Shown here in pieces: positions 13,769 to 28,953 of a stretch of 30,599 nucleotides of DNA (its first letter is position 1; the number at the start of each line of letters is the position of its first letter). The notes under the pieces were generated by a model. That model saw nothing but the letters and a program-made list of their open reading frames with translations. It was not told the DNA's origin and made no database searches. Position numbers and translations under genes: made by a program. The DNA lies in assembly GCA_049970895.1 (NCBI GenBank), contig JBMFMB010000017.1:1-30599 (forward strand), given 5' to 3'. The DNA is from Candidatus Bathyarchaeia archaeon. Lineage in GTDB: Archaea; Thermoproteota; Bathyarchaeia; Bathyarchaeales; Bathycorpusculaceae.

Positions 13769-14404
13769 ATGACGACATTGTCCACGAAGAAGGTAAGGGA
13801 TAGGTGGCGCAGCAAGATATGGTATACGGTTGTTGCTCCACCATACTTTGGAAATGTTGAGTTAGGCGCAATTCCAGCAGATGAACCTGAAAAACTCATT
13901 GGAAGGGTTATGGAGGTAACGCTTTACGATATCACTGGCGACTTTTCCCATCAGTACATGAAATTGTATTTCCAAATAACCCAGGTTGAGGGAAAAACAG
14001 CCCGTACCATGTTTAAGGGGCATGAATACTCAAGGGATTACCTTAGAAGTCTTGTGAGGCGGAGGACAACGAAGGTTGATGGAATCTTCAACGTTTCAAC
14101 TAAAGACGGCTACAGATTTAGAGTAGCGGTCTGCGCCTTCACTCTCACAAGAATTAAGACCTCGCAGGAGCGTGCCATACGCAAAATTATGGCGAAAATA
14201 GTTGAGGAGAAAAGTGCAGCCCTAACAATGGACCAATTTGTCCAAGAAATGGTTCTTGGAAAAATCGCATCAGACATATATAATGAAGCTAGAAAAATTG
14301 TGCCACTCCGCCATGTTGGCGTCAGAAAGTCTAAGCTTCTAATGCAGGTGGCTCAAATACAAGCGTTACAAGTGCCACTGCAAAGGGTCGAGGAGCAAAG
14401 TTAG
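13769..14404 (+). CDS. rps3ae: 30S ribosomal protein S3Ae (eS1)
   Basis: RDRWRSKIWY, LIGRVMEVTLYDITGD, RDYLRSLVRRRTTKVD, IVPLRHVGVRKSK. Confidence 0.95.
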   Translation: MTTLSTKKVRDRWRSKIWYTVVAPPYFGNVELGAIPADEPEKLIGRVMEVTLYDITGDFSHQYMKLYFQITQVEGKTARTMFKGHEYSRDYLRSLVRRRTTKVDGIFNVSTKDGYRFRVAVCAFTLTRIKTSQERAIRKIMAKIVEEKSAALTMDQFVQEMVLGKIASDIYNEARKIVPLRHVGVRKSKLLMQVAQIQALQVPLQRVEEQS

Positions 14405-14946
14405 CCTTCAACAAGCTTTTTACCATATTCATAGCCCATTTCAAAGGCTTTTAGGTTCAGCGCTTCAGTTCCCTTTGGAACATTAGCCCTAATAGACTCT
14501 TTTAGGGCTTCCTTATCCACCATGCTTGTTATTGCTGTGAAGGCTCCTAACATAACAACGTTTGCAACTATTCTTCTTCCAAGCTCTTCAGCCATTCTCG
14601 TGGCTGGAACCCGAAAAACTTTCACGCCTTTAAGTTCCCTCTCGTTGGGGATCATGTCCGGGTCGAGTATTATTGTTCCGCCCTTTTTCACGGTCTCTGC
14701 ATACTCGTTGTAGGCGTGTTGGGACATCACCACCAAAATGTCTGGCTCGGTAACTTTTGGAAAGTCTATTTCTTCATCGGCTATTACAACTTCTGAGCGA
14801 CATGCTCCGCCCCGCGACTCTGGTCCATAAGACTGCGTTTGCACAGCGTGCTTCCCACAGTATATGCATGCGGCCATAGCCACCATAATCCCGGACTTAA
14901 TTATTCCTTGACCGCCGAAACCTGCAAATCTAATTTCAACACGCAT
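14401..14946 (-). CDS. korC: 2-oxoacid:ferredoxin oxidoreductase gamma subunit
   Basis: IRFAGFGGQG, QSYGPESRGG, ANVVMLGA, NLKAFEMG. Confidence 0.9.
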   Translation of the reverse strand: MRVEIRFAGFGGQGIIKSGIMVAMAACIYCGKHAVQTQSYGPESRGGACRSEVVIADEEIDFPKVTEPDILVVMSQHAYNEYAETVKKGGTIILDPDMIPNERELKGVKVFRVPATRMAEELGRRIVANVVMLGAFTAITSMVDKEALKESIRANVPKGTEALNLKAFEMGYEYGKKLVEG

Positions 14947-14958
14947 AAGGCATTCACC

Positions 14959-15798
14959 TTATTCTTCAATTTCTTTCATTATTTGCGCCATTTTATTATG
15001 GAGAAGCTCCTCATAAGTTGGCTTTTCAATATCTACAAATTCTCCAACAACTATTTTTTCAGGGGTTATTTCCGCCTCTGCAGGATCCGAAAAGTTGGCG
15101 ATTACCGAAACTTTCTTAAACCATTCCATCATTTCGAGGCCTGTTCGCATTTTGTTGTGGCGTCCATAGATTTCTGGGCATGGTGATATAACTTCTATGA
15201 AGGAGAAGCCCTTCCTTTGTAGAAGCTTCTTGATAGACATTGTTAGCATTCGCACGTGGAGGGTTGTCCACCTTGCCACATAAGTTGCTCCGGCTGCCGC
15301 TGCTAAATGGACAAGGTTGAAGGGGTGCTCAATGTTCCCGTAAGGTGTTGTCGTTGTTAAAGCATTTAGTGGTGTTGTTGGTCCAACTTGTCCGCCTGTC
15401 ATTCCGTAGTTGAAGTTGTTGGCGCATATCACTTTGATTCCAATGTTTCTCCTTGCAGCGTGGATGAAGTGGTTTCCCCCTATCGCGAAAAGGTCGCCAT
15501 CACCACTTATAACAACAACTTCGAGTTCCGGATTTGCAAGTTTAACGCCTGTTGCAAAGGCTATTGGACGCCCGTGGGTCGCGTGGAAAGAATCCACATT
15601 TGTGTAGCCAGCTGCTCGCCCAATACAACCTATTCCTGAAACGACAACAAGCTTGTCCAAGTTTATCTGCAACTCGTCAAGCGCATGCACAAAAGCGTTA
15701 AGGATTATGCCGTTCCCACATCCGGTGCACCATATGTGGGGCATCATGGTGGCTCTCAGATATTTTGAAAAGGGATGTTGCTCAACAGCTTCTGTCAT
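14959..15798 (-). CDS. korB: 2-oxoacid:ferredoxin oxidoreductase beta subunit (TPP-binding)
   Basis: WCTGCG, SGIGC, HGR, GDGD...NNFNYGMTGGQ, SPCP. Confidence 0.92.
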   Translation of the reverse strand: MTEAVEQHPFSKYLRATMMPHIWCTGCGNGIILNAFVHALDELQINLDKLVVVSGIGCIGRAAGYTNVDSFHATHGRPIAFATGVKLANPELEVVVISGDGDLFAIGGNHFIHAARRNIGIKVICANNFNYGMTGGQVGPTTPLNALTTTTPYGNIEHPFNLVHLAAAAGATYVARWTTLHVRMLTMSIKKLLQRKGFSFIEVISPCPEIYGRHNKMRTGLEMMEWFKKVSVIANFSDPAEAEITPEKIVVGEFVDIEKPTYEELLHNKMAQIMKEIEE

Positions 15799-16949
15799 TT
15801 GCTATACCTCCCGATAAATTCGAGAATCTCCATTGGCGTATGCGGCTCCTCACCCAACTTCGGCATGTGGAAAACTGGTGTTCCTTTTGCAGCCCTTTCA
15901 ACCTCCCTAGCCATCTGCCCACAATTCATTTCCGGAACAATTATTGCTTTGGCATTTTCAGCAGCCTTCGCCACGTGCTTTTCTGGGAAGGGCCAAAGGG
16001 TTATTGGGCGGAGGAGCCCGGCTTTTACACCTTGCTGTCTTGCTTTTCTCACAGCGCTTAGGGCTGCCCGCGCAACTATTCCGTAGGCAAAAACCACAAT
16101 TTCGGCGTCATTCAACATATGCTCCTCAACACGGATTATTTTGTCAGCGTTCTTCCTTATTTTGTCGCAGAGTCTCTGCACAAGCCGCATCTGAACCTCT
16201 GAGCTTTGTGTACGTGGATAACCATGCTCATCGTGGGTTAGGCCTGTAGCATGAAAGCGGAAGCCCTCACCGAAACAAGCCATAGGTGGAACCAAGTCAT
16301 CGTCTGGCATGAAAGGTGCATACTTTTCTGGCGGCGTGTTAGGCTTTTTGCGGTTAACAATCCTTATCTCTTCAGCTGGTGGTATAACCACTTTCTCCCA
16401 CATGTGAGCAACAACCTCATCAGCCATCACAAAAGTTGGAACACGATAGGTTTCAGCCAAGTTGAAGGCTTCAATCGTCAGATCAAACATTTCCTGAACA
16501 GAAGAGGGGGCTAAGGCTATAATTTCGTAATCGCCATGGGAACCCCATTTTGCTTGCATAACATCCTGCTGTCCCGGAAGGGTTGGCTGTCCAGTGCTTG
16601 GGCCTCCACGCATTACGTCAACGATTACACAAGGGGCTTCTGTCATGGCAGCCAAGCCTATGTTCTCCTGCATTAGACTAAAGCCAGGCCCAGAGGTGGC
16701 TGTCATAGCCTTCAAGCCAGCGTAGGATGCGCCTATAACTGCGGCTATTGAGGCTATCTCGTCTTCCATTTGAATGTAGATTCCTCCAACTTTCGGCATT
16801 CTGGCCGCTAAATGCTCCGCTATTTCTGTTGCTGGTGTTATTGGGTATCCAGCGAAGAACCGGCATCCGGCTGCTATGGCGCCTTCTGCACATGCAATGT
16901 CGCCGCTCATGAAGTGCACACCGGTCAAAACTGCTTTTTTACCAGCCAT
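15795..16949 (-). CDS. korA: 2-oxoacid:ferredoxin oxidoreductase alpha subunit
   Basis: FFAGYPITP, QMEDEIAS, TATSGPGFSLMQE, RGGPSTGQPT, EMNCGQ. Confidence 0.92.
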   Translation of the reverse strand: MAGKKAVLTGVHFMSGDIACAEGAIAAGCRFFAGYPITPATEIAEHLAARMPKVGGIYIQMEDEIASIAAVIGASYAGLKAMTATSGPGFSLMQENIGLAAMTEAPCVIVDVMRGGPSTGQPTLPGQQDVMQAKWGSHGDYEIIALAPSSVQEMFDLTIEAFNLAETYRVPTFVMADEVVAHMWEKVVIPPAEEIRIVNRKKPNTPPEKYAPFMPDDDLVPPMACFGEGFRFHATGLTHDEHGYPRTQSSEVQMRLVQRLCDKIRKNADKIIRVEEHMLNDAEIVVFAYGIVARAALSAVRKARQQGVKAGLLRPITLWPFPEKHVAKAAENAKAIIVPEMNCGQMAREVERAAKGTPVFHMPKLGEEPHTPMEILEFIGRYSK

Positions 16950-17228
16950 TTAACATCCATCCTTACATTGTTTCTCTTTAACGAAAATTGCAAAGTCTGG
17001 GCAAACAGCTGTGCAGAAACTGCATAGAATACAACTATTTTCATCAACAACTCTTGGGGGGTGAACCCCTCTCGCGTTAATTTCGTCAGATTCCTCTAAA
17101 ACTTTTTTGGGGCAGTATTGGATGCAGAAGCCGCATCCCTTACACTGGTCTTTTAATATGTGGATTTCAGCCTTCGGCCTGGAAACCTTCTCAATGTTTA
17201 ATGGTGTTCTCCAAAATCTTTCCGGCAT
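16950..17228 (-). CDS. korD: 2-oxoacid:ferredoxin oxidoreductase delta subunit, 2x[4Fe-4S]
   Basis: CKGCGFCIQYCP and CILCSFCTAVCPDFAI. Directly upstream of the alpha subunit. Confidence 0.88.
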   Translation of the reverse strand: MPERFWRTPLNIEKVSRPKAEIHILKDQCKGCGFCIQYCPKKVLEESDEINARGVHPPRVVDENSCILCSFCTAVCPDFAIFVKEKQCKDGC

Positions 17229-17229
17229 T

Positions 17230-19635
17230 TTAGGTTCCCCCGGCTTTTTGGAAAACTTTTTTGGCGAGTTCTATCTCCTCTGGGGTTACGCTTTCCACGA
17301 TCTTCTGCATTTCGTAAATTTTGGAGGCGAACCTTTCTCCTTCAGCTGCTGAAACCCATAACAATTGAAGCCTCTCCTTGTTTAACCCGTTTTGTTCCAT
17401 CTTTTTCCATAAACGTTCTACACGCCTCTGAGTGTGATAGTTGGCATTTATATAGTGGCAGTCTCCAGGGTGGCAGCCCGCCACGATGACTGCAGCAGCA
17501 CCTCTCGCGAAGGCCCTTTCAACAAATTTTGGAGCTACCCTTCCAGAGCACATCGTTCTAATTATCCGCACGTTTGGTGGGTATTGCATTCTACTGACTC
17601 CAGCGAAGTCTGCACCGGCATAAGCACACCAGTTGCAGCAGAAGGCAACAATTTTCTTATCAGCATCGTGCTCCGTAACAGCGTCTATTTGAGCTATTAT
17701 CTGCTCGTCTGTAAAATGATTCTGCGTCAACGCGTCGGAAGGGCACTCAGCAGCGCATGTTCCGCATCCTCCGCAAGCAGCCTCAACGATTTCGATGCGT
17801 TTAAGCTCCTTGTTTAGAGTTATCGCATTATAGGGGCAAACCTTTGTGCAAAGCCCACAAGCCTTACACTTTTCCACGTCCAAAATCGGCGTGATAGCCT
17901 CAACCGTAACCTTGCCCTTAGCCATAAGAATGCCAGCTCTGGCTGCGGCTGCGCTTGCCTGTGTTACGCTGTCTTTTATGTCCTTTGGGGCTTCAGCACA
18001 TCCAGCGAAGAATATGCCTCCGGTTGCAGCGTCCACTGGTCGGAGCTTTGGATGGGCTTCCATGAAGAATCCGTCTTGCGTTCTGGAAAGTGTCAGTAAT
18101 CGCTGTATTACTTCGCTGTCTTTCCGCGGCTCAAGCCCAACGGATAGAATAACCATGTCGAAGTTCATTTTGTATGGTTCTTTCAGGAGCGTGTTTTCGC
18201 CTATTAGCCAAAGGTTGCGGGTCCTCTTATCCTCAATTATTTCTGCTGGAAGCCCCCGGATGAATATTACGCCTTCCTTTTTCGACCTCTTGTAGAGGTC
18301 TTCGAAACCCTTCCCATACGCGCGGATGTCAACGTAAAAGACGTAGATTTCAGTTTCAGGCCAATGCTCCTTAATGAGGAGACTGTCCTTTATTGTGTTC
18401 ATGCAACAAACATTACTGCAGTAAGTTCGTCCAGTCCTATTAGAGCGGGAGCCAACACATTGTATAAAGGCTACACGCTTCGGAACCTTCATATCACTAG
18501 GCCTTATCAACCTCCCACCAGATGGACCGCCAGCATTAATCAGCCTTTCAAATTCAAGGGATGTAATCACGTTTAGATATTTGCCATAACCATACTGTGG
18601 AAGCGCTGAAGGGTCAAAAACGTCTGCGCCCGTCGCCACTATTATTGTTCCCACTTCTAGTTCTATAGTTTCAGGTTTCATTGTGAAGTCTATGGCTTGT
18701 CTTTCGCAAGCCTTAACGCATTTGTCGCACACCATCACGCCGTCTTTGTTGAGGCATAGGTTCATGTCAATAATGTATGTTGATGGGACAGCTTGTGCAA
18801 ACGGCGTGTAAATGGCGTGTCTTAGGGCTAGGCCAGCGTCAAACTCGTTTGGCGCTGTCATGGGACAAACTTTCGAGCATTCGCCACACGCTGAACAGTC
18901 TTCCTTCACATATCGCGGTTTCTTTAAGACTTTGACTCGGAAGTTGCCTATGTATCCTTTTACATCGATAACTTCACTGTTGGTTAATAGTTCAATGTTT
19001 GAATGGCGCCCTACATCCGACATTTTAGGCGCAAGAATACATATGGAACAGTCCATTGTTGGGAAAGTCTTGTCTATCCTTGCCATCATCCCGCCGATGC
19101 TCGGCTCCCTCTCCACCAAATAAACTTTATAACCAGTATCCGCAAGGTCCAAAGCTGCTTGAATGCCTGCAACGCCCCCACCAATGATTAATGCTTTCCT
19201 TATAATTGGCACTTCAATTTCGCTGGCTGATCTAAGTAGGGCTGCCTTTGCCACAGCCATTTTAACAATGTCTTTAGCCTTTTCTGTTGCCGCCTTCCTA
19301 TCGTAGAGGTGAACCCAACTACACTGCTCACGTATGTTAGCCATCTCAAAAAGGTACTTGTTTAACCCAGCCTCTTCACACACTTTCCGAAATGTTGGTT
19401 CATGAAGACGCGGAGAACACGAAGCAACAACCACACGGTTGAGCCTATACTCCCTAATATCATTCTTTATAAGCGCTTGTCCCTGGTCTGAACACGTATA
19501 GCGGTAATCCCTTGCCAAAACAACATGGGGAAGTGTTGCAGCAAACTCTGCAACTTCTTTGCAGTCAACAGAACCAGCGATGTTTAAACCGCAATGACAA
19601 ACATAAACTCCAATGCGAATTTCCTCTTTTGCCAT
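17230..19635 (-). CDS. hdrA: HdrA-MvhD fusion (flavin-based electron-bifurcation module)
   Basis: GVYVCHCGLNI, SCSPRLHE, GGGVAG, TFPTMDCSICI, inserted ferredoxin, LEFER, CVGSR...YCSNVCCMNTIK, C-terminal ferredoxin, then MvhD (FCCNWCAY, MCSGR, GCHPGDCHY). Confidence 0.95.
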   Translation of the reverse strand: MAKEEIRIGVYVCHCGLNIAGSVDCKEVAEFAATLPHVVLARDYRYTCSDQGQALIKNDIREYRLNRVVVASCSPRLHEPTFRKVCEEAGLNKYLFEMANIREQCSWVHLYDRKAATEKAKDIVKMAVAKAALLRSASEIEVPIIRKALIIGGGVAGIQAALDLADTGYKVYLVEREPSIGGMMARIDKTFPTMDCSICILAPKMSDVGRHSNIELLTNSEVIDVKGYIGNFRVKVLKKPRYVKEDCSACGECSKVCPMTAPNEFDAGLALRHAIYTPFAQAVPSTYIIDMNLCLNKDGVMVCDKCVKACERQAIDFTMKPETIELEVGTIIVATGADVFDPSALPQYGYGKYLNVITSLEFERLINAGGPSGGRLIRPSDMKVPKRVAFIQCVGSRSNRTGRTYCSNVCCMNTIKDSLLIKEHWPETEIYVFYVDIRAYGKGFEDLYKRSKKEGVIFIRGLPAEIIEDKRTRNLWLIGENTLLKEPYKMNFDMVILSVGLEPRKDSEVIQRLLTLSRTQDGFFMEAHPKLRPVDAATGGIFFAGCAEAPKDIKDSVTQASAAAARAGILMAKGKVTVEAITPILDVEKCKACGLCTKVCPYNAITLNKELKRIEIVEAACGGCGTCAAECPSDALTQNHFTDEQIIAQIDAVTEHDADKKIVAFCCNWCAYAGADFAGVSRMQYPPNVRIIRTMCSGRVAPKFVERAFARGAAAVIVAGCHPGDCHYINANYHTQRRVERLWKKMEQNGLNKERLQLLWVSAAEGERFASKIYEMQKIVESVTPEEIELAKKVFQKAGGT

Positions 19636-19642
19636 TCTCCAC

Positions 19643-21082
19643 TCACCTTAAACCTAAAGACTTTAGGTAACAATCAATAGAAGCGGCGGCAATTTTCCCA
19701 GAACATATAGCCTCAATAATTGAGGCTGGACCAGTTACGGCGTCCCCGCCGGCAAACACGCCTTTAAGGGTTGTCTCCATGGTTAATGGGTTAACCCAAA
19801 TAGTGCCATCCTCGTTTAGCTCAACTTCTTTCGGCAAAAAAGACAGATCTGGAACCTCACCAATCGCCAAAATCACCACGTCCGCCTCTTTAACAAATTC
19901 AGAACCCTCAATAGGAATCGGTTTCCTCCTTCCTGTCTCATCTAACCCGCCTAACTGCATTCGGACAAATTCAACAGCAGAAACCTTTCCGCCATTGCCC
20001 AGAAAACTTTTAGGAGAAACCAAAAACTCGATTTTTACACCCTCATTTTGAGCCTCCTTAACTTCCCATGGGTTTGCAGGCATCTCCTCCACGGATCTCC
20101 GATAAAATATCGTTGCCTCTCCAGCACCACATTTTAGGGCTGTTCTTGCAGAGTCAACTGCAACGTTCCCACCGCCAATCACAACCACGCGTTTGCCCCT
20201 AACGTCCGGCATCTTTCCAGAATTAACCATCCAGAGAAAGTCTAAAGCATGCATCACCCCATTTAAGTCGACACCTTCAACCCTCAACTCTTGCCCTTTA
20301 TGAGCGCCTACACCGATAAAAATAGCATCATACCCTTGCCTCAAACTACTAAAATCAACATCCTTACCAACAGCAACACCAGTTTCTATTTCTACGCCAA
20401 GATCTTTCAAAACTTCTATGTCCTTGTCCAAAAATTCCCTCGGGAGACGATAAGTTGGCAAACACTTTCTCAACATCCCGCCCGACTCTGAAAGAACTTC
20501 AAAAACCGTAACCTTATAGTTTTTTAGAGCTAAGTCGTGTGCAACAGTAAGCCCTGCTGGCCCTGAGCCTATAACTGCAACCTTCCTATTTGATAATTCT
20601 GCTTGAGCTTCCTTCTTTTTCTCGCCTAAAAATTCCTTCCTCAGCTTTTCAGCCTCGTTTATGACTTTGTTTAGATTTAACCCCGCGCGCTCCGGATGGA
20701 AACACGCAAGAATCGTGACTAAGGGGAGGGGGGATACCTTAACAATTTTTCTTATGGCATTTTCAAACACTCGCCCATATCCCCATTTAACAGCAAACTT
20801 TTTGACGTGAAGGAATATTTCTGGCGGCTTCAGGGCTTGTGGGCAATGCCTACAACAACGGTAACACCAAGCACAAAGCCAAAGCTCATCTGAAGCCAAA
20901 GCATATTCAATGCTTAAGAAAATCTTTTCAAGAATATTTCTCGGGTTATATTCTCCTTTTAGGAGTCCCGCCATGGGGCAGCTTGCCGTGCATATTCCAC
21001 ATTCAAAACAGAACTTGAGTTTCTCAGCGTCTGGATATTCGGCGAGAACCTCTTTGTAGGTCACGGTTTTTGCCGTGCTCAA
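19643..21082 (-). CDS. Chimeric HdrC-like 2x[4Fe-4S] domain plus GltD/NfnB/SudA-like FAD/NAD(P)H oxidoreductase
   Basis: N-terminal CFECGICTASCP and WLCAWCYRCCRHCPQ, then IGSGPAG, GGML...LPTYRLP, IGGGNVAVD, YRRS, FAGGDAVTGP. Confidence 0.85.
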   Translation of the reverse strand: MSTAKTVTYKEVLAEYPDAEKLKFCFECGICTASCPMAGLLKGEYNPRNILEKIFLSIEYALASDELWLCAWCYRCCRHCPQALKPPEIFLHVKKFAVKWGYGRVFENAIRKIVKVSPLPLVTILACFHPERAGLNLNKVINEAEKLRKEFLGEKKKEAQAELSNRKVAVIGSGPAGLTVAHDLALKNYKVTVFEVLSESGGMLRKCLPTYRLPREFLDKDIEVLKDLGVEIETGVAVGKDVDFSSLRQGYDAIFIGVGAHKGQELRVEGVDLNGVMHALDFLWMVNSGKMPDVRGKRVVVIGGGNVAVDSARTALKCGAGEATIFYRRSVEEMPANPWEVKEAQNEGVKIEFLVSPKSFLGNGGKVSAVEFVRMQLGGLDETGRRKPIPIEGSEFVKEADVVILAIGEVPDLSFLPKEVELNEDGTIWVNPLTMETTLKGVFAGGDAVTGPASIIEAICSGKIAAASIDCYLKSLGLR

Positions 21083-21122
21083 TTTAATTCGCCTTACTAT
21101 TATTGGGAATGCTCACGGATAT

Positions 21123-21144
21123 AAACTTTACAAATGTAAAGTTT
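21123..21144. promoter_or_regulatory. Inverted repeat AAACTTTACA-aa-TGTAAAGTTT, a putative operator in the divergent promoter
   Basis: 10-bp arms are exact reverse complements. TATA-like boxes flank it (TTTATA on the minus strand at ~21120-21125; TTTTATAA on the plus strand at 21163-21170). Confidence 0.6.
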
Positions 21145-21209
21145 TAAATCACAAGCAACTCCTTTTATAATCACAAAGACAATTAAACCATAAGCACGGG
21201 GAACAACAA

Positions 21210-22235
21210 ATGGACGAAGTCAAAGTTGTTTTATATGGGGTTGGCACAGTTGGAAGCCTCATAGCGAGGGCACTTCTTGAAAAAAGGGGGGTAAAGATAG
21301 TTGGTGCAATTGATGTTGCAAAGGACAAAGTTGACAAGGATTTAGGCGAAGTTTTAGGCTTAAACAAGAAAATCGGCATAATAGTTTCAAGCGACGCTGA
21401 CGCTGTACTTGCGAAGACCAAGCCAGACATAGCCATCCACGCCACATCATCCTATCTTAGAGACACGTACCCACAGATAGCCTCCATTATTAAGCATGGC
21501 GTAAATGTGATATCTACATGCGAAGAACTCTCCTATCCATACTGTTCAGAACCAAGAATCGCAGAGGAACTAGATAAACTAGCTAAAAAGCATGACGCAA
21601 CAGTTTTGGGCACGGGGATAAATCCGGGATTTTTAATGGACACCCTTGTGATAACACTGACGGCGGCGTGCCAAAAAATAGAGAAAATTGAAGCTGTTAG
21701 GGTTATGAACGCCGCTAAAAGACGCTTACCTTTCCAAAAGAAGATAGGCGCGGGCTTAACAGTTGAGGAGTTTAAACAAAAAATTGAAAAGGGAGAAATA
21801 ACTGGACACGTTGGGCTTGTGCAGTCCATTGCAATGATTGCAGCCGCTTTGGCATGGAAACTTGATGAAATAAAGGTTGACCCAGTTGAGCCAGTAATAG
21901 CCAAAGAACAAGTGAAAAGCGATTTCATAAAAGTTGACGCTGGAAAAATTGCAGGTTTGAGGCAAACGGCAAGAGGCATTATGAAAGGCAAAGAAGTCAT
22001 AGTCCTAGACTTTAAAGCCTACATTAGCGCAGAAGAAGAGTATGACGCCATAACAATCACTGGTGTCCCAACAATAAAGCAGAAAATTCAGCCTTGTATC
22101 CACGGAGACGCAGGAACGGTGGCGGTAATCATAAACTCTATTCCAAAAGTTTTGAAGGCACCAGCTGGCTTGGTCACAATGAAAGATTTGCCTGTTCCCT
22201 CAGCCGTGGTTGAGGATATGCAGAAATACTTGTAA
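21210..22235 (+). CDS. NAD(P)H-dependent amine dehydrogenase, 2,4-diaminopentanoate dehydrogenase (Ord)-like / DapB N-terminal family
   Basis: YGVGTVG Rossmann motif, NVISTCEEL.YP, TVLGTGINPGFLMD, KKIGAG, GHVGL, GD.GT...IPKV..A..GLVTMKDLP. Confidence 0.82.
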   Translation: MDEVKVVLYGVGTVGSLIARALLEKRGVKIVGAIDVAKDKVDKDLGEVLGLNKKIGIIVSSDADAVLAKTKPDIAIHATSSYLRDTYPQIASIIKHGVNVISTCEELSYPYCSEPRIAEELDKLAKKHDATVLGTGINPGFLMDTLVITLTAACQKIEKIEAVRVMNAAKRRLPFQKKIGAGLTVEEFKQKIEKGEITGHVGLVQSIAMIAAALAWKLDEIKVDPVEPVIAKEQVKSDFIKVDAGKIAGLRQTARGIMKGKEVIVLDFKAYISAEEEYDAITITGVPTIKQKIQPCIHGDAGTVAVIINSIPKVLKAPAGLVTMKDLPVPSAVVEDMQKYL

Positions 22236-22253: not shown

Positions 22254-23036
22254 GTGATGAGGTTGAGGTTTCAAGTTGATATAAACTGTGATTTGGGGGA
22301 AAGCTTTGGCGCATTCAAGGTTGGAAACGACGCGGAAATAATGCCCTACATAACTTCTGCTAATGTTGCGTGTGGTTTTCACGCTGGAGAACCCTTAACA
22401 ATGGCGCAGACCATAGCTCTGGCAAAAAAGCACGGGGTGGCTGTGGGTGCTCACCCCGGATATCCAGATCTAATGGGGTTTGGAAGAAGGGAGATGCAAT
22501 TAACAAGCGAAGAAGCGAAAAGTTATATTATCTACCAGATTGGTGCGCTTCAAGCGTTCGCCAAAGTTTTCGGTGTCAACCTTCAGCATGTAAAACCGCA
22601 TGGGGCTATGTATAACATGGCGTTAAAGGATAGAGAGCTTTCTAGGGCTATAGCTGAAGCCATCGCAAAGCTAGATCTTGACCTTATTGTTTTTGCACCT
22701 CCAAAATCGGCATTGGCTGAAATGGCAGCAAACACTGGACTGCGGGTTGCCTACGAGTTTTTCGCCGACAGAGCCTACAACTCGGATGGGAGCCTAGTTT
22801 CTAGGAAAATGCCCGGTGCTATAATTGAGAAGCCAGACAAAGCCTTAAAGCGAGCCCTACGAGCCGTAAAGGAAGGTGTAGTTGAGGCTTTTGACGGCAC
22901 ACTTGTGGAACTTGGACAAGTGCACACTATCTGTGTTCATGGTGACACGCCAACAGCGGTCAAGTTAGCTGAAGCTTTAAAGAAGGGACTTGTTAAAGCT
23001 GGGATAGAGGTTAAACCAGTAAGCCAATTTATTTAA
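22254..23036 (+). CDS. pxpA: 5-oxoprolinase subunit A (LamB/YcsF)
   Basis: DINCDLGESFG, SANVACGFHAG, GAHPGYPD, HVKPHGAMYN, FADRAY, TICVHGD. Confidence 0.94.
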   Translation: MMRLRFQVDINCDLGESFGAFKVGNDAEIMPYITSANVACGFHAGEPLTMAQTIALAKKHGVAVGAHPGYPDLMGFGRREMQLTSEEAKSYIIYQIGALQAFAKVFGVNLQHVKPHGAMYNMALKDRELSRAIAEAIAKLDLDLIVFAPPKSALAEMAANTGLRVAYEFFADRAYNSDGSLVSRKMPGAIIEKPDKALKRALRAVKEGVVEAFDGTLVELGQVHTICVHGDTPTAVKLAEALKKGLVKAGIEVKPVSQFI

Positions 23037-23045
23037 TGATGCCCC

Positions 23046-23792
23046 ATGAAAGACGCTGTTTACCCGTCCGCACGGTATTTTCCCTTTGGCGACAGCGCAC
23101 TGGTTGTTGAGTTTGGCGATATAATTGATTTGGCGGTAAATAGCAAGGTTATTGCTTTAAATGAGGCTCTTTTGAATGCAGGAATAAGAGGAGTCGAGGA
23201 AATTGTCCCGACTTATAGGTCGCTGCTCATTCGTTATGAGCCGGCTGAAATATCCTACGAACAACTTGTTTTGCGTGTTAAGGAAATTGAAAAGATGCTG
23301 GGAGAAAAGCCAGCAAAAACAGATGGAAGAAAGCTTGTTGTTCCAGTGGTTTATGGTGGGGTTTATGGACCAGACTTGGCTTATGTGGCTCAGTATCATG
23401 GGTTAAATGAGGAGCAAGTTGTTAGGCTTCATTCCGGAAAAGAGTATAGGGTTTACATGATAGGCTTTGTCGCTGGCTTTCCATATTTAGGCGATGTTCC
23501 GGAAGAAATTGCAACACCACGCCTTGAAACCCCACGCTTAAGAGTGCCAGCCGGATCCGTTGGGATTGCAGAAAAACAGACGGGAATATATCCATGCGAG
23601 GCTCCTGGAGGCTGGCGGATAATAGGCAGGACCCCCATAAAACTTTTTGACCCGCAGTGGCAGCCTCCAGCCTTGCTAAAACCCGGAGACATCGTCAAAT
23701 TCAATCCAATTTCAGAAAGTGAATTCAGGAAGATTGAAGAGCTTGTCAAGATGGGCACTTACAAATCGCAATTTGAGGAGCAGACAAAATGA
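23046..23792 (+). CDS. pxpB: 5-oxoprolinase subunit B (KipI/AHS1)
   Basis: GDSALVVEF, VPTYRSL, PVVYGG..GPDL, YMIGFVAGFPY, PAGSVGIA, PGGWRIIGRTP. Confidence 0.93.
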   Translation: MKDAVYPSARYFPFGDSALVVEFGDIIDLAVNSKVIALNEALLNAGIRGVEEIVPTYRSLLIRYEPAEISYEQLVLRVKEIEKMLGEKPAKTDGRKLVVPVVYGGVYGPDLAYVAQYHGLNEEQVVRLHSGKEYRVYMIGFVAGFPYLGDVPEEIATPRLETPRLRVPAGSVGIAEKQTGIYPCEAPGGWRIIGRTPIKLFDPQWQPPALLKPGDIVKFNPISESEFRKIEELVKMGTYKSQFEEQTK

Positions 23793-24739
23793 GTGTTTTC
23801 CAAGTTTTGAAGCCCGGGTTCTTCACAACAGTGCAGGATTTGGGTAGATATGGCTACCTCAAATATGGTGTTCCGATTTCTGGGGCTATGGACTCGTTTT
23901 CCATGGTCGCCGCAAATCTGCTGGTTGGCAATAGCCCCAACGCTGCATGTTTAGAAATAACTCTCATAGGACCAGAGTTTCAAGCATTGGCGGATACGCA
24001 GATTGCCATAACTGGTGGGAGAATTTCTGTGGAAATTAATGGAGAAGAGGCGTCCATGTGGCAAACATTAACCGTTCATAAAGGGGATTTTGTTTCCCTG
24101 GGAAAAGTGGAGAGCGGATGCAGATGCTATCTTTCCATTAGGGGTGGAATAAACACGCCTATGATTCTTGGAAGTAGGTCAACGTATGTGCGTGGCAGAT
24201 TCGGCGGCATAGAAGGCAGACAGTTAAAGACCGGAGACGTAATCGAAGGTTTCAGCGCCCCACTTTTGAAAGCTGGTTTTAAAATGCCGGAAAGCCTCAT
24301 GCCAAACTTCACAAATAACTTTACGGTACATGTTGTTTTGGGACCACAAGCCGACATGTTCGCAGAAAAGGGCATAGAAAAATTCCTTTCAAACCATTAC
24401 AAGGTTACAATAGAGTCCGACCGCATGGGCTACCGCCTCGAGGGACCAGCAATAGAGCATAAGGGAAAAGCGGAAATAGTTTCGGATGCCCTTCTGCCCG
24501 GGGCAATTCAGGTTCCCCGAAATGGAAAACCAATTATAATAATGAAGGATGCCCAAACGACTGGAGGCTATCCCAAAATAGCTGTTGTTGTAACGCCAGA
24601 TTTGGATAGGCTTGGACAGGCTAAGCCTAATGACACCATAAAGTTTTCGGAAATAACATTAAAAGAGGCTCATGAAAAGCTTTTAGAATATCGGAAAACG
24701 CTTGCTAGTCTGTCTGAGAAGCTAATTCAATTAACTTAA
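23789..24739 (+). CDS. pxpC: 5-oxoprolinase subunit C (KipA/AHS2)
   Basis: TTVQDLGR.G, SGAMD, LEITL.GP, GSRST, SDRMGYRL, GAIQVP..GKPII, DAQTTGGYPKI. Confidence 0.93.
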   Translation: MSVFQVLKPGFFTTVQDLGRYGYLKYGVPISGAMDSFSMVAANLLVGNSPNAACLEITLIGPEFQALADTQIAITGGRISVEINGEEASMWQTLTVHKGDFVSLGKVESGCRCYLSIRGGINTPMILGSRSTYVRGRFGGIEGRQLKTGDVIEGFSAPLLKAGFKMPESLMPNFTNNFTVHVVLGPQADMFAEKGIEKFLSNHYKVTIESDRMGYRLEGPAIEHKGKAEIVSDALLPGAIQVPRNGKPIIIMKDAQTTGGYPKIAVVVTPDLDRLGQAKPNDTIKFSEITLKEAHEKLLEYRKTLASLSEKLIQLT

Positions 24740-26942: not shown

Positions 26943-27218
26943 TTAAGAGAATAGTTCAGTTAAGATTTGGTTTAGCTGGTTTTTGTCTTTAACTTTTTTG
27001 AAGATGGCTTTTCCTGTTGCGTATAGGTGTATCTGGGTTTCTTTGTAGGTTAAGTCAAAGATTATTTTAGCTACGGCTTTTTGCACTATGGCTTTTTCCA
27101 GTATTTTGGCTATTGCCTCTTCTTTTTTATCGTGTCTGAAGAAGATTATGTAGTCTTTTTCTTCTCCGCATGCCTCTTCGATTCTTGCTATGTAAGTGTC
27201 CAGAACGGTGGTGCTCAT
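26943..27218 (-). CDS. Small hypothetical protein (91 aa, single Cys), last gene of the Fe-S operon
   Basis: ATGA overlap with the sufS stop and an upstream AGGAGA RBS. Base composition is similar to the operon. Confidence 0.72.
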   Translation of the reverse strand: MSTTVLDTYIARIEEACGEEKDYIIFFRHDKKEEAIAKILEKAIVQKAVAKIIFDLTYKETQIHLYATGKAIFKKVKDKNQLNQILTELFS

Positions 27219-28453
27219 AGGGACTGCTCAATCTCCTTTAGGACTTCCACTAGCCGGTCTATTTCTTCTTGGGTGTTGTATATGTAGAAGCTTGCCCTTG
27301 CCGATGATTTTATTCCGAGTTTTTGGTGGAGGGGTTGGGCGCAGTGGAAGCCGCTTCTAATCATTATGCCATAAGTGTCGAGGATCAAAGCCAAGTCATG
27401 GGAGTCGAAGTCTTCAATGTTGAAAGGTACTATGCCACATTTTATTTTCACGTCTTTTGGTCCGTAAACTTTGACTTTTCGGCATTCTTGTAGGCGTTTT
27501 ATGGCGTATTCTGTTAAGGCGCATTCGTGGGTTTGTACGTTTTCCATCCCGAGGTTTTTTAGGTATTTTATGGCCGCCATTAGACCTACTCCACCGCATA
27601 TATTTGGCGTTCCAGCCTCGAATTTCCATGGCAGGTCGTTCCATGTTACTTTGCAGCTTTTAGTTTTTGGGTTGTAGGAGACTTCTCGTATCATTTCGCC
27701 TCCTCCGTGGAAGGGTTCCATTTCTTCTAGGATTTCTCGCCTGCCGTATAGGACGCCTATTCCCGTTGGTCCAAGCATTTTATGTCCGGAGAAGGCTAGG
27801 AAGTCGCAGCCGAGTTCTTTTACATTTATTGGTAGGTGGGGGACGGATTGGGCTCCGTCTACGAGGATTAGGGCGTTGTTTTCGTGGGCTAGTTTTGCGG
27901 CATAACGCACATCATTTATTACGCCCGTAACATTTGAGACGTGGGTTATGCAGACCATTTTTGCTTTTGGTGTGATGGCTTTTTCTAGGGCTTGCCTGTT
28001 TAGGGTTCCGTCTTCGTTTATATCTATGTAGCGCACTTTGAAGCCCTTTATTTTTGATAGGATTTCCCATGGGACTATGTTGCTGTGGTGTTCCATTAAA
28101 GTTACGAGGACTTCGTCTCCTTTTTTGAGGTTCCGTAGTCCCCATGAGTAGGCGACCGTGTTTATGGCTTCTGTTGTTCCCCTTGTGAAGATTATTTCTT
28201 CTATGCTTTCTGCGCCTATAAATTTGGCTGTTTCTTCGTGGGCTTCTTCGTAAAGCTCTGTTGCTTCCAATGAGAGCGTGTGTACGGCTCTGTGGACGTT
28301 GGCATTATGTTGCTCATAGTATTCTTTTATGGCTTCTATAACTTGTTTTGGTTTTTGGGATGTGGCTGCATTGTCAAAGTATATGAGGGGATGATTGTTT
28401 ATTTTCCGTTTTAGAATTGGGAAGTCTTCTCGGATTTTATAGGGGTCGAACAT
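27215..28453 (-). CDS. sufS: Cysteine desulfurase, group II (SufS/CsdA)
   Basis: YFDNAATSQKP, NVHR, MEHHSNIVPW, DGAQ, FSGHKMLGPTG, KFEAGTP, RSGFHCAQPL, RASFY. Confidence 0.95.
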   Translation of the reverse strand: MFDPYKIREDFPILKRKINNHPLIYFDNAATSQKPKQVIEAIKEYYEQHNANVHRAVHTLSLEATELYEEAHEETAKFIGAESIEEIIFTRGTTEAINTVAYSWGLRNLKKGDEVLVTLMEHHSNIVPWEILSKIKGFKVRYIDINEDGTLNRQALEKAITPKAKMVCITHVSNVTGVINDVRYAAKLAHENNALILVDGAQSVPHLPINVKELGCDFLAFSGHKMLGPTGIGVLYGRREILEEMEPFHGGGEMIREVSYNPKTKSCKVTWNDLPWKFEAGTPNICGGVGLMAAIKYLKNLGMENVQTHECALTEYAIKRLQECRKVKVYGPKDVKIKCGIVPFNIEDFDSHDLALILDTYGIMIRSGFHCAQPLHQKLGIKSSARASFYIYNTQEEIDRLVEVLKEIEQSL

Positions 28454-28953
28454 TATTTTTCCTCTGCCATCTTCATTTTTTTCTCTAGGATTTTTGCCAG
28501 TTCCTCCTCTTCTAGGGCTTGTTTTTCTTCAAAGGTCAAGTCTTTTGAGAGCCACTCCGGTGTTGTTTGTTTGTTTTTGTAGTAGGTTCTTATGGCTCTT
28601 CTTAGCGCGCCGACAGCCAGTATTCCGCAGTGGAATTTTACCGCTGGGAGCCCGCCGACCTCTTCTGCTATGCTTTTCCATGTGATTTTCCATGCGTCTT
28701 CAAGTTTCATTCCCCTCACTTTTTCTGTCACTATACTGGATGTGGCTATGTTGGCGGCGCATCCGTAGCTTTCGAAGGATGCCCTTTCAATTATGTCATG
28801 GTCGTTTATTTTTAGGTAGAAGGTTATCATGTCTCCGCATTGGGGGTTTCCAGCCACAGCTGAAACTGTGGCGTCTTCCATTTTTCCAAGGTTTTTGGGG
28901 TTTCTGAAAAGTTCGAGGATTTTTTGGCTGTAGGGTAAGGGTGCACGGGACAT
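28453..28953 (-). CDS. iscU: Fe-S cluster scaffold, IscU/NifU-N type
   Basis: YSQKILELF.NPKNLG, GNPQCGD, YGCAANIA, GGLPAVKFHC. Confidence 0.92.
   Translation of the reverse strand: MSRAPLPYSQKILELFRNPKNLGKMEDATVSAVAGNPQCGDMITFYLKINDHDIIERASFESYGCAANIATSSIVTEKVRGMKLEDAWKITWKSIAEEVGGLPAVKFHCGILAVGALRRAIRTYYKNKQTTPEWLSKDLTFEEKQALEEEELAKILEKKMKMAEEK

Follow-up and report, generated by a model that had tools for sequence, protein, structure and literature searches.

The DNA analysed here (hereafter the window, 30,599 nucleotides (nt)) is the entire contig C17 (JBMFMB010000017.1) of the assembly GCA_049970895.1 of a Candidatus Bathyarchaeia archaeon, whose genome amounts to 1.34 Mb on 79 contigs and is estimated to be 97% complete. 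Its central feature, recognised from the list of open reading frames (ORFs) and from the sequence itself, is a series of six ORFs on the minus strand (14401-21082), which encode a fusion of an HdrC-type iron-sulphur (Fe-S) domain with a GltD-type flavoprotein body, an HdrA-MvhD fusion, and the four subunits of a 2-oxoacid:ferredoxin oxidoreductase (Table 1). The successive junctions, followed 5' to 3' along the operon, are a 7 nt gap, a 1 nt gap, direct abutment (0 nt), a 4 nt overlap, and a 12 nt gap, in agreement with a preliminary description of this DNA, which had reported six co-oriented genes with gaps of 12 bp or less. The same description had stated that hdrB, mvhAG, fdh, and flx are missing from the window, and this also held: no Pfam match to a CCG (HdrB), [NiFe]-hydrogenase, molybdopterin, or Flx-type domain was found in the six proteins or in 30 further ORFs of the window. 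Thus, neither the operon nor the window holds a gene for an HdrB/CCG partner by Pfam, and HdrC is present there as a domain only.

Table 1. Features of the six-gene operon and of its immediate surroundings (positions in the window; aa, amino acids).
Feature	Position	Strand	Basis
HdrC-domain/GltD fusion flavoprotein, proposed NADP(H) port; 479 aa	19643-21082	-	Pfam, NCBIfam, AlphaFold2, Foldseek
HdrC-type domain of the fusion protein, residues 20-104, two CxxCxxCxxxCP motifs	20771-21025	-	5odc_C alignment
Degenerate Fer4_20 (GltD Fe-S domain) remnant of the fusion protein, residues 105-165	20588-20770	-	alignment A4
FAD and NAD(P)H Rossmann domains of the fusion protein, residues about 164-475; GSGPAGL, GGGNVAVD, and YRRS strings	19658-20587	-	PDB sequence matches
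HdrA-MvhD fusion, proposed bifurcating hub; 801 aa	17230-19635	-	NCBIfam NF040770, PDB match 5odc_A
MvhD ([2Fe-2S]) domain of the HdrA fusion, residues 659-789	17269-17661	-	Pfam FlpD; MvhD 5odc_D
KorD, 2x[4Fe-4S] delta subunit; 92 aa	16950-17228	-	NF042987 OGOR_delta; eight invariant Cys
KorA, alpha subunit (POR_N+PFOR_II); 384 aa	15795-16949	-	PRK08659; 1yd7_A; 8ys5_A
KorB, TPP-binding (thiamine pyrophosphate) beta subunit; 279 aa	14959-15798	-	TPP_enzyme_C; PRK09628
KorC, gamma subunit (POR); 181 aa	14401-14946	-	PRK08537
Divergent intergenic region, 127 nt, between the fusion gene and the Ord-like gene	21083-21209	.	sequence read
Ord-like NAD(P)-dependent amine dehydrogenase family protein, divergent neighbour	21210-22235	+	DAP_DH_C 181 bits; ornith_Ord 352 bits (below the cut-off of 400)

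The most peculiar member of the operon is the fusion protein. Its N-terminal part matches Fer4_8 of Pfam (residues 22-82) and the HdrC models of NCBIfam (residues 17-104, 54-63 bits; 63.2 bits with TIGR03290, below the cut-off of 160), and residues 20-101 align to residues 29-108 of the 184 residues of HdrC in the solved Mvh-Hdr complex (5odc_C; E 4.8e-15). Residues 1-101 share 32-37% identity with the two HdrC proteins encoded by the same genome, and all eight cysteines of the domain (C25/28/31/35 and C70/73/76/80) are invariant in the 25 sequences out of 25 compared in alignment A1. Since the match is limited to 5odc_C 29-108, the fusion protein is missing the C-terminal part of HdrC, which presumably wraps HdrB. 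The remainder of the protein consists of a flavin- (FAD) and NAD(P)H-binding body (Pyr_redox_2 at 167-460, 107.8 bits; GltD-type match at 76-474), whose best PDB sequence matches are NfnA of NfnABC (9n5u_A, 304.7 bits) and the large subunit of NfnI (5jca_L, 269 bits); the scores obtained with the GltD-family models PRK12771 (347 bits) and gltA (301 bits) lie below the respective cut-offs of 516 and 472. The motif residues of the Rossmann domains are invariant in alignment A1, including the YRRS that follows the second GGGNVAVD motif, and that, by comparison with the YRR of NfnB, GltD, and TrxR, suggests a preference for NADPH over NADH. The AlphaFold2 model (predicted local distance difference test (pLDDT) 90.9, predicted template modelling score (pTM) 0.90) matches NfnI-L 5jca_L in Foldseek with template modelling (TM) scores of 0.72/0.74 over about 505 columns, and the overall architecture of the fusion protein is therefore that of the GltD family.

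What separates the two parts is a remnant of the Fer4_20 domain, by which GltD-type proteins carry their own Fe-S clusters. In alignment A4, one Cys-rich stretch of this domain is deleted, the 'C.HPCE..C.R' motif is reduced to 'CFHPER', and C127 is the sole invariant cysteine; no Fer4_20 match was obtained with Pfam at E <= 0.01. The same alignment includes a deltaproteobacterial homologue with an HdrC-like domain and an intact GltD Fer4_20 domain, and the 574-aa GltD paralogue of the same genome, which keeps the Fer4_20 cysteine motifs and has no HdrC-type domain. Because the eight HdrC-type cysteines are invariant and the GltD Fe-S domain has lost its ligands, the HdrC-type clusters would be the only Fe-S route to the FAD. 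As judged from the alignments, they have taken over from the clusters proper to the GltD family, and the term "chimera", under which the preliminary description had joined HdrC to GltD, is apt: the PDB and NCBIfam matches and alignment A4 agree on an HdrC-type two-cluster domain linked to a GltD-type NAD(P)H/FAD body. The protein has thousands of relatives in the databases; the best 120 are of similar length, mostly 61-100% identical, mostly from Bathyarchaeia, and bear source names such as "FAD-dependent oxidoreductase", "glutamate synthase beta subunit-like", "heterodisulfide reductase subunit A" or similar. The possibility that it represents a glutamate synthase small subunit was considered and rejected, no large subunit of glutamate synthase (GOGAT) scoring above cut-off in the genome (the best Glu_synthase family match reaches 18.3 bits).

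The second gene encodes what is, on the evidence of its sequence, a canonical bifurcating-type HdrA. It scores 1278.2 bits with the NCBIfam model of HdrA2 (NF040770, cut-off 1100; residues 7-789 on model positions 1-777) and 861.6 bits with HdrA 5odc_A over residues 4-653, and it is followed, within the same polypeptide, by an MvhD domain (FlpD at 662-781, 168 bits; 5odc_D at 659-787, 156.9 bits). The cysteine motifs of the N-terminal, thioredoxin-reductase-like, inserted, and C-terminal ferredoxin domains match those of 5odc_A and are invariant in 25 of 25 orthologues. The same is true for the LEFER and CCMxxxK strings (here CCMNTIK) that had been pointed out beforehand and that we take to be tied to the bifurcating FAD.

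The four remaining proteins match the alpha, beta, gamma, and delta subunits of a Kor enzyme. KorA scores 594 bits with PRK08659 (cut-off 411) and 407 bits with the OGOR-specific alpha model (cut-off 579); its nearest solved chain is the unassigned "2-keto acid" alpha subunit of Pyrococcus (1yd7_A, 451.7 bits), the next being the 2-oxoglutarate synthase alpha subunit 8ys5_A (289 bits). KorB matches TPP_enzyme_C (114.5 bits) and, as its best NCBIfam model, the OGOR beta model PRK09628 (270.6 bits, cut-off 364), KorC exceeds the cut-off of PRK08537 (248.4 versus 235 bits), and KorD reaches 68.5 bits with the OGOR_delta model NF042987 (cut-off 125), its eight cysteines being invariant in alignment A3. 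The OGOR-specific models are thus best or near-best and below cut-off, and for this reason we call the enzyme KOR-type and treat 2-oxoglutarate as an unproven, if probable, substrate. The PadE/F/G/I models of NCBIfam matched the proteins of the operon weakly. The C-terminus of KorD often carries a C-x3-C pair (KQCKDGC in the protein of the window), which is found in most but not all orthologues of alignment A3.

The arrangement of these genes is not due to chance. Scanning one genome per species yielded 80 loci, 61 of which possess the fusion gene at 45% identity or more, nearly all of these being titled Bathyarchaeia or Bathyarchaeota. One locus is titled Hadarchaeota, and two are titled as bacterial metagenome-assembled genomes: L063 (Krumholzibacteriaceae), which carries the bathyarchaeal operon with an HdrA 81% identical to that of the window, and L066 (Anaerolineales), with a matching fusion gene and an Ord-like neighbour; both are probably mis-binned contigs in public assemblies. 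Of the archaeal loci, 43 extend for at least 5286 nt beyond the fusion gene on its downstream side, and 38 of these show the succession hdrA-korD-korA-korB-korC in order and strand. In a 39th locus (L055:1-3700) the order is kept and hdrA is split into two ORFs (425 + 415 aa) between the fusion gene and korD, which could represent a frameshift, an assembly error, or a real split; L076, L077, L080, and L082 do not show the order. The conservation check that the preliminary description had called for thus came out in favour of a stable six-gene unit. The adjacency of hdrA to the fusion gene is found in 44 of the 50 loci with at least 2500 nt downstream, the order holds down to 52% identity of the fusion protein, and hdrA and korD, measured between their aligned stretches, are a median of 14 nt apart in the 38 loci. 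In these loci the mean identity to the proteins of the window is highest for HdrA (86%), followed by KorA (82%), KorB (81%), KorD (76%), KorC (75%), and the fusion protein (65%), the neighbouring ribosomal protein S3Ae showing 80%; hence, HdrA is the most conserved member of the operon. Among 401 genomes sampled from the class, about 45 besides that of the window encode a full-length orthologue of the fusion protein (at least 47% identity, starting at query residue 20 or before), 24 of them belonging to the 103 of its own family.

Relatives of the fusion gene also occur in other gene settings. In the Hadarchaeota locus L080 (4481-14474), mtd and ftr precede the fusion gene and hdrA, and what comes after the pair is not kor but a gene for a 584-aa protein without Pfam match at E <= 1e-12 and an amidohydrolase gene; since the pair stands there without kor, it appears to be reused with other partners. 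In the Bathyarchaeote BA2 (L077), an hdrA/mvhD/hdrA/mvhD/hdrC/hdrB/mvhG cluster that resembles the C7 cluster of the genome under study (see below) begins with a fusion-type gene. In the 18 bacterial loci retrieved, the match either comes third, behind two HdrA-like genes, or belongs to an HdrL-type fusion of 1284-1505 aa followed by mvhD. The deltaproteobacterial loci show the first layout (HdrA-like protein of about 450 aa, HdrA-like protein of about 700 aa, HdrC domain plus GltD of about 585 aa), and in L097, checked by Pfam, one of the two HdrA-like proteins, that of about 700 aa, has an FlpD/MvhD domain; the HdrL-type proteins occur in four loci, three of which were checked by Pfam. No kor match (E <= 1e-8, at least half of the query covered) was found in any of the 18 bacterial loci within the fetched flanks (10 kb). 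The idea that the bacterial matches represent the same operon was therefore rejected, L091, L097, L098, and L104 also keeping an intact Fer4_20. In L104 and L091, HdrL-type proteins of 1495-1505 aa are followed by mvhD and lie beside a gene for methylenetetrahydrofolate reductase (metF), for formate-tetrahydrofolate ligase (fhs), or for a molybdopterin (Fdh-like) protein, a Wood-Ljungdahl context that is known for MetF-Hdr systems.

The term "HdrB-less", proposed for this module, is correct for the operon but not for the organism. The genome encodes four CCG-domain proteins elsewhere, two of which are HdrB-like and adjoin HdrC, and two mvhAG sets on contig C7. The first set comprises GcvH-like, 574-aa GltD-like, MvhD-like, 1010-aa double HdrA, MvhD, HdrC, HdrB, MvhG, MvhA, and HycI genes, the second MvhA, an 855-aa HdrA-MvhD, HdrC, and HdrB; both GltD-type proteins of the genome thus adjoin HdrA genes. 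Together, these sets make up two Mvh/Hdr superclusters (C7:42756-61784, L022), the first of which constitutes a second NAD(P)H module tied to Hdr, in this case with HdrB and hydrogenase, and its 574-aa GltD-type protein has a C-terminal 2x[4Fe-4S] domain. Contig C4 encodes a polyferredoxin followed by an HdrA-MvhD 54% identical to that of the window, as well as a TfrAB-like fumarate reductase with a CCG domain, and on C21 (1315-8240, L025) another HdrA-MvhD lies opposite to an HdrD-like gene (HdrC domain plus CCG), in a further unusual Hdr module whose other members are a flavoprotein of thioredoxin-reductase-like type, a 2x[4Fe-4S]/double MvhD protein, and one resembling PyrK/NfnA. A third [NiFe] match, on C6, was discarded as a hydrogenase partner, being the NuoCD of an Fpo/Nuo-like complex, which leaves the two Mvh sets as the only hydrogenases seen. 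This complex (C6:43590-57100, L107) consists of NuoB, fused NuoCD, NuoH, NuoI, and three antiporter-like subunits, and an FrhB/FpoF-like protein with two CBS domains is encoded nearby.

In the same genome (estimated 97% complete), mcrA was not found, which renders a role independent of the coenzymes M (CoM) and B (CoB) plausible. The search for hdrB, mvhAG, and mcr recommended at the outset was two-sided: the independence from CoM/CoB that had been proposed gains from the lack of mcrA, but the HdrA-MvhD of the operon might work with the HdrBC or MvhAG encoded elsewhere, a scenario that the preliminary description had named as refuting its proposal. Citrate synthase was likewise not found in the genome, and SucC and CdhC are present; no NfnAB-type pair was seen among its GltD paralogues. 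The sole match to glutamate dehydrogenase covers just a C-terminal piece, which contains an in-frame TAA and lies close to the end of a contig (C31:437-979, L108). The methanogen M. jannaschii, used as a control, also has SucC and no citrate synthase; methanogens of this type make 2-oxoglutarate reductively via Tfr, Suc, and Kor. [NiFe] large-subunit matches occur in all five operon-bearing genomes checked, G391 having only short C-terminal pieces. Citrate synthase is present in one of five operon-bearing versus four of five operon-less genomes, a hand-picked comparison confounded by lineage; its use as a clean anti-marker of the operon was not sustained, also in view of the genus g42, which has it both with and without the operon.

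A question that arises from these data concerns the reaction that such an assembly might catalyse. In the paper describing the MvhAGD-HdrABC structure, donors reportedly enter by MvhD, the C-terminal ferredoxin domain of HdrA is said to feed high-potential electrons to HdrC and HdrB, and the inserted ferredoxin domain to hand low-potential electrons to ferredoxin. NADP(H) lies at about -320 mV and the KorD/Kor side at about -500 mV, so that a bifurcation donor would be near -410 mV, which H2 via Mvh fits. On these potentials, NAD(P)H, ferredoxin, and a 2-oxoacid provide no mid-potential donor between two acceptors, and the operon alone defines no bifurcating reaction. From the gene content, domain anatomy, gene order, and genomic inventory observed, we infer the contacts, cofactor specificity, substrate, direction, and third partner of the following scheme. 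The operon would encode a soluble HdrA-based redox machine independent of CoM/CoB, with HdrA-MvhD as the flavin hub. The fusion protein would dock via its HdrC-type two-cluster domain at the usual HdrC site, and the branch on that side would run to its own FAD and then to NADP(H), in place of HdrB and the heterodisulfide. The low-potential branch, through the inserted ferredoxin domain of HdrA, would serve Kor, either by direct contact with KorD or by free ferredoxin, and the fused MvhD port would receive a mid-potential partner encoded outside the operon, the likeliest candidate being the Mvh [NiFe]-hydrogenase of C7 with H2. The net, near-reversible reaction would be

2 H2 + NADP+ + succinyl-CoA + CO2 <-> NADPH + H+ + 2-oxoglutarate + CoA

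with an expected anabolic direction, in which bifurcation drives the synthesis of 2-oxoglutarate and NADPH is a co-product; this direction is favoured by the missing citrate synthase and by the absence of energy-converting hydrogenases, and SucC, the TfrAB-like fumarate reductase, and CdhC count in its favour as well. The parts of the scheme do not deserve the same confidence. That HdrA and the fusion protein form a complex with NADP(H) at the HdrC side appears fairly probable to us, and a functional coupling of the two to Kor only slightly less so; a direct docking of Kor to HdrA is a tentative proposal that we regard as rather doubtful, and H2 via Mvh, although the best candidate for the third partner, is somewhat unlikely when taken by itself. 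As a whole, a HdrA hub with NADP(H) on the HdrC side, Kor on the low-potential side, and an outside partner for MvhD is the best explanation that we can offer, to which we would concede a little less than an even chance.

The contact between KorD and HdrA was explored by a three-chain structure prediction (HdrA plus the HdrC-type domain, residues 1-105, with KorD as the partner) and three controls. KorD obtained a median score of 0.47 and the best control 0.00, for a verdict of "weak support"; the runs agree in at least 65% of the contacts, and the partner pLDDT is at least 72. The mark applied is reached by 58 of 80 solved complexes and by 2 of 110 mismatched pairs; at scores of 0.60 or lower, it is reached by 7 of the 80 solved complexes and by both passing mismatches. 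The modelling of KorD with HdrA that had been suggested thus gave a weak signal above the controls.

Several observations weigh against the scheme outlined above. The docking score is weak, no interface was returned, and, since solved Hdr-polyferredoxin assemblies exist, the score may reflect likeness or memory. The operon has no mid-potential donor module, and both mvhAG sets are placed within separate hdr clusters that already have an MvhD. The distribution of the operon is patchy, a full-length fusion gene being present in one of the three other genomes of the same genus sampled. Citrate synthase occurs in one of the five operon-bearing genomes, and C1 encodes another KOR-type set, which lacks a delta subunit and adjoins an acyl-CoA dehydrogenase gene, so that the Kor of the operon need not be the anabolic enzyme. 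In HdrL and type III HdrA proteins, the GltD part is inserted at the ferredoxin-domain side and not at the HdrC side; the wiring of GltD to HdrA is thus not uniform. Finally, the thermodynamic argument rests on standard potentials.

Among the other readings, the one that survives best, although we consider it unlikely, is a linear, non-bifurcating 2-oxoacid:NADP+ oxidoreductase, in which electrons would pass from Kor through KorD, the clusters and FAD of HdrA, the HdrC-type clusters, and the GltD FAD to NADP+, providing NADPH straight from 2-oxoacid oxidation in amino-acid fermentation, with HdrA as a wire or a one-to-two-electron converter. All the parts needed, and nothing more, are encoded in the operon; the neighbourhood is glutamate-centred (PxpABC and the Ord-like amine dehydrogenase), and SucC is available to harvest ATP from succinyl-CoA. 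A parallel is offered by the NAD(P)+-reducing 2-oxoacid oxidoreductases of Azoarcus (2-oxoglutarate:NADP+ and phenylglyoxylate:NAD+), which have an added flavoprotein subunit. However, a GltD-type flavoprotein alone would suffice for this purpose, about 180 mV would be wasted (on standard potentials), and the failure to find a citrate synthase suggests that 2-oxoglutarate has to be produced and not only consumed. A HdrA of 801 aa, complete with inserted ferredoxin domain and MvhD, would not be needed and yet is the most conserved protein of the set; this maintenance of a large HdrA with all its ports is the strongest argument both against the linear route and against the idea that the operon simply co-transcribes two separate enzymes. 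The latter, to which we assign an even smaller probability, holds that Kor works on free ferredoxin and that HdrA and the fusion protein are a general ferredoxin/NADP(H) module, a stand-in for Nfn or FNR, with no contact between the two. It would account for the fusion gene and hdrA without kor in Hadarchaeota, for the bacterial pair without kor within 10 kb, for the weak docking support, and for the lack of an NfnAB-type pair among the GltD paralogues, but it does not explain why the six-gene order is kept in 38 of 43 loci down to 52% identity of the fusion protein, with a median gap of 14 nt between hdrA and korD, nor the KorD docking score of 0.47 versus 0.00 for the controls.

Two further readings appear to us highly improbable. 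In a confurcation to coenzyme F420, modelled on Methanosarcina HdrA2, which oxidises F420H2 by itself, low-potential electrons from the 2-oxoacid and electrons from NADPH would meet at the HdrA FAD and reduce F420, to feed an Fpo/Nuo-like complex or F420-dependent C1 enzymes. The operon HdrA does lie above the curated HdrA2 cut-off, and an FpoF/FrhB-like protein is encoded beside the Nuo-like complex; nevertheless, it is at least as close to the H2-linked HdrA 5odc_A (862 bits), the operon has no F420-binding subunit, and about 100 mV per pair would have to be overcome in the forward, anabolic direction (on standard potentials). For this last reason the forward version, a bifurcation driven by F420H2 to NADP+ and Kor, was rejected outright and the reverse alone retained. 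Support for an F420 link comes from purified HdrA2-MvhD of M. acetivorans, which, according to the available portion of the report, uses F420H2 and ferredoxin (PMC5296606). A bifurcation with NADPH as the mid-potential donor, entering via the fusion protein, and with Kor/ferredoxin as the low-potential acceptor and a high-potential acceptor reached via MvhD, maybe an HdrB/HdrD-type thiol-disulfide reductase encoded elsewhere (there are four CCG-domain proteins, including the HdrD-like one beside HdrA-MvhD on C21), draws on Flx-Hdr and MetFV-Hdr systems, which, in the sections available, take NAD(P)H as donor (PMC6315080, PMC9012536), but no acceptor gene is linked in the 38 loci, and NADP(H) here sits on the HdrC side, which in the known architecture of Hdr is the acceptor side, donors entering by MvhD.

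Returning to the HdrA hub with NADP(H) and Kor as its two outlets, its relationship with known systems can be considered. The MvhAGD-HdrABC complex of methanogens (H2:CoM-S-S-CoB, ferredoxin oxidoreductase; 5odc) has close homologues of the HdrA and MvhD of the operon, and its HdrC cluster domain resembles the N-terminus of the fusion protein. The operon differs from it in having neither HdrB nor the HdrC tail that would wrap it, in the fusion of the HdrC domain to a FAD/NAD(P)H body and of MvhD to HdrA, in the lack of mvhAG, in the attached kor genes, and in a genome where mcrA was not found. With the NfnSL/GltD/DPD family (NfnI 5jca_L, NfnB 4ylf_B, NfnABC 9n5u_A) the fusion protein shares the overall fold (TM 0.72-0.74 to 5jca_L) and the FAD/NADPH domains (269-305 bits); unlike the members of this family, it has an HdrC-like N-terminal cluster domain, has lost the cysteine ligands of the family, and has no NfnS/NfnA-type partner beside it. 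In QmoABC of sulfate reducers, an HdrA-like pair, one of which carries MvhD, is accompanied by a third subunit starting with an HdrC-like cluster domain; in gene layout alone, this recalls the deltaproteobacterial loci described above, but the HdrC-like domain of Qmo is linked to a membrane cytochrome b, and that of these loci and of the operon to a soluble NAD(P)H flavoprotein.

The closest precedents for the union of HdrA with a GltD-type NAD(P)H module, MvhD coming next, are HdrL and type III HdrA. As far as the consulted part of the source goes, HdrL is a fusion of HdrA and glutamate synthase followed by MvhD (PMC2702500), and NAD(P)H has been proposed as the redox partner of such GltD-bearing proteins in the accessible passages of three papers (PMC2702500, PMC12054007, PMC9012536). 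In the operon there are instead two genes 7 nt apart, and the GltD body bears an HdrC-type domain and no longer possesses the Fer4_20 cysteines proper to it, whereas in HdrL and type III HdrA a GltD with intact Fer4_20 is inserted inside HdrA, in clusters carrying metF, fdh, dsr, or mvh and not kor. An association with a 2-oxoacid oxidoreductase is also not without parallels. The "HdrAL/POR" cluster of Syntrophobacter fumaroxidans (Sfum_0012-0018) encodes an HdrA/HdrL-type module with pyruvate:ferredoxin oxidoreductase; compared by description only, it differs in being bacterial and of POR type, and in the part of the article available it receives a one-sentence mention and was not detected in the proteome (PMC5947623). 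In tubeworm symbionts and Thioflavicoccus, korABCD are interspersed with flxABCD-hdrABC, and a direct electron delivery to the 2-oxoglutarate synthase of the reductive pathway has been proposed, according to the excerpt at hand; this gammaproteobacterial system differs in taking NADH via FlxABCD and in keeping HdrB and HdrC (PMC6315080). Lastly, in the methanogen Hdr-Fwd/Fmd super-assemblies, chains of which (7bkb and 9sw6) are among the PDB matches of HdrA-MvhD, HdrA passes low-potential electrons into a CO2-fixing enzyme via a ferredoxin-like subunit, as stated in the portion of the paper accessible (PMC13518236); here the acceptor would be a TPP-dependent 2-oxoacid synthase, via KorD (a contact weakly predicted), and not formylmethanofuran dehydrogenase via a polyferredoxin.

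These bacterial precedents (HdrL, the HdrAL/POR cluster, and kor genes among flx-hdr) lower the novelty that had been suspected for the arrangement. The part of the claim that stands is that no description of the exact six-gene arrangement was found in the main texts of open-access papers, and that the operon is not mentioned in the available parts of surveys of Bathyarchaeia or of HdrA (PMC7886697, PMC11237513, and bioRxiv 10.1101/2024.09.26.615249). The operon is conserved, uncharacterised, and mechanistically suggestive, its function, as proposed here, being wholly inferred. Hdr and Mvh genes are common in non-methanogenic archaea (Bathyarchaeia and Asgard lineages), which lack CoM and CoB, so that the identity of their high-potential acceptor is a long-standing question; the operon provides an answer for one HdrA paralogue that is concrete, conserved, and open to testing, and in which the HdrC side would end in an NADP(H) flavoprotein and the module would be tied to Kor. 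If the coupling is real, Hdr assemblies would have a new output, TPP-dependent carboxylation, and an abundant sediment lineage without energy-converting hydrogenases would have a source of low-potential biosynthetic electrons. It is even conceivable, albeit improbable, that Bathyarchaeia hard-wire bifurcation to C-C carboxylation, Mvh-HdrA-MvhD splitting the electrons of H2, with those of low potential going via KorD into 2-oxoglutarate and those of high potential via the HdrC-type domain to NADP+, which would replace CoM-S-S-CoB as the sink. If so, the system would parallel, on a [NiFe]/Hdr basis, the bifurcating [FeFe] hydrogenases that are fused to a CO2-fixing enzyme, it would yield 2-oxoglutarate and NADPH 1:1, the ratio needed for glutamate synthesis, and it would answer the question of the role of Hdr and Mvh in archaea without methanogenesis. 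Should it be a plain 2-oxoacid:NADP+ wire or a pair of separate enzymes, it would represent an ordinary variant of known Fe-S flavoprotein modules.

As to the borders of the operon, the divergent intergenic region upstream of the fusion gene contains an A+T-rich, TATA-like stretch ahead of the TTG start, whose position matches the N-termini of the orthologues in alignment A1, and it is likely, on sequence grounds, to be the promoter region of the operon. On the downstream side, the last gene shares 4 nt with the end of the convergent gene for ribosomal protein S3Ae. The Ord-like neighbour belongs to the 2,4-diaminopentanoate dehydrogenase family, slightly below the curated cut-off, and is followed in the window by the 5-oxoprolinase genes pxpABC (22254-24739), whose products score above the cut-offs of PxpA, PxpB, and the PxpC family. 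Of the 38 complete loci, 30 have a homologue of the Ord-like gene within their fetched flanks, in most cases divergent and immediately upstream, and this conservation hints at a link of the operon to amino-acid (glutamate) metabolism. Further on (27215-30176), 6 kb from the Fe-S-rich operon, two cysteine desulfurase-type genes surround a NifU-like scaffold gene for Fe-S assembly, and ORFs of lengths equal to those of the desulfurase/NifU-like genes, compared by length only, lie upstream of the operon in relatives.

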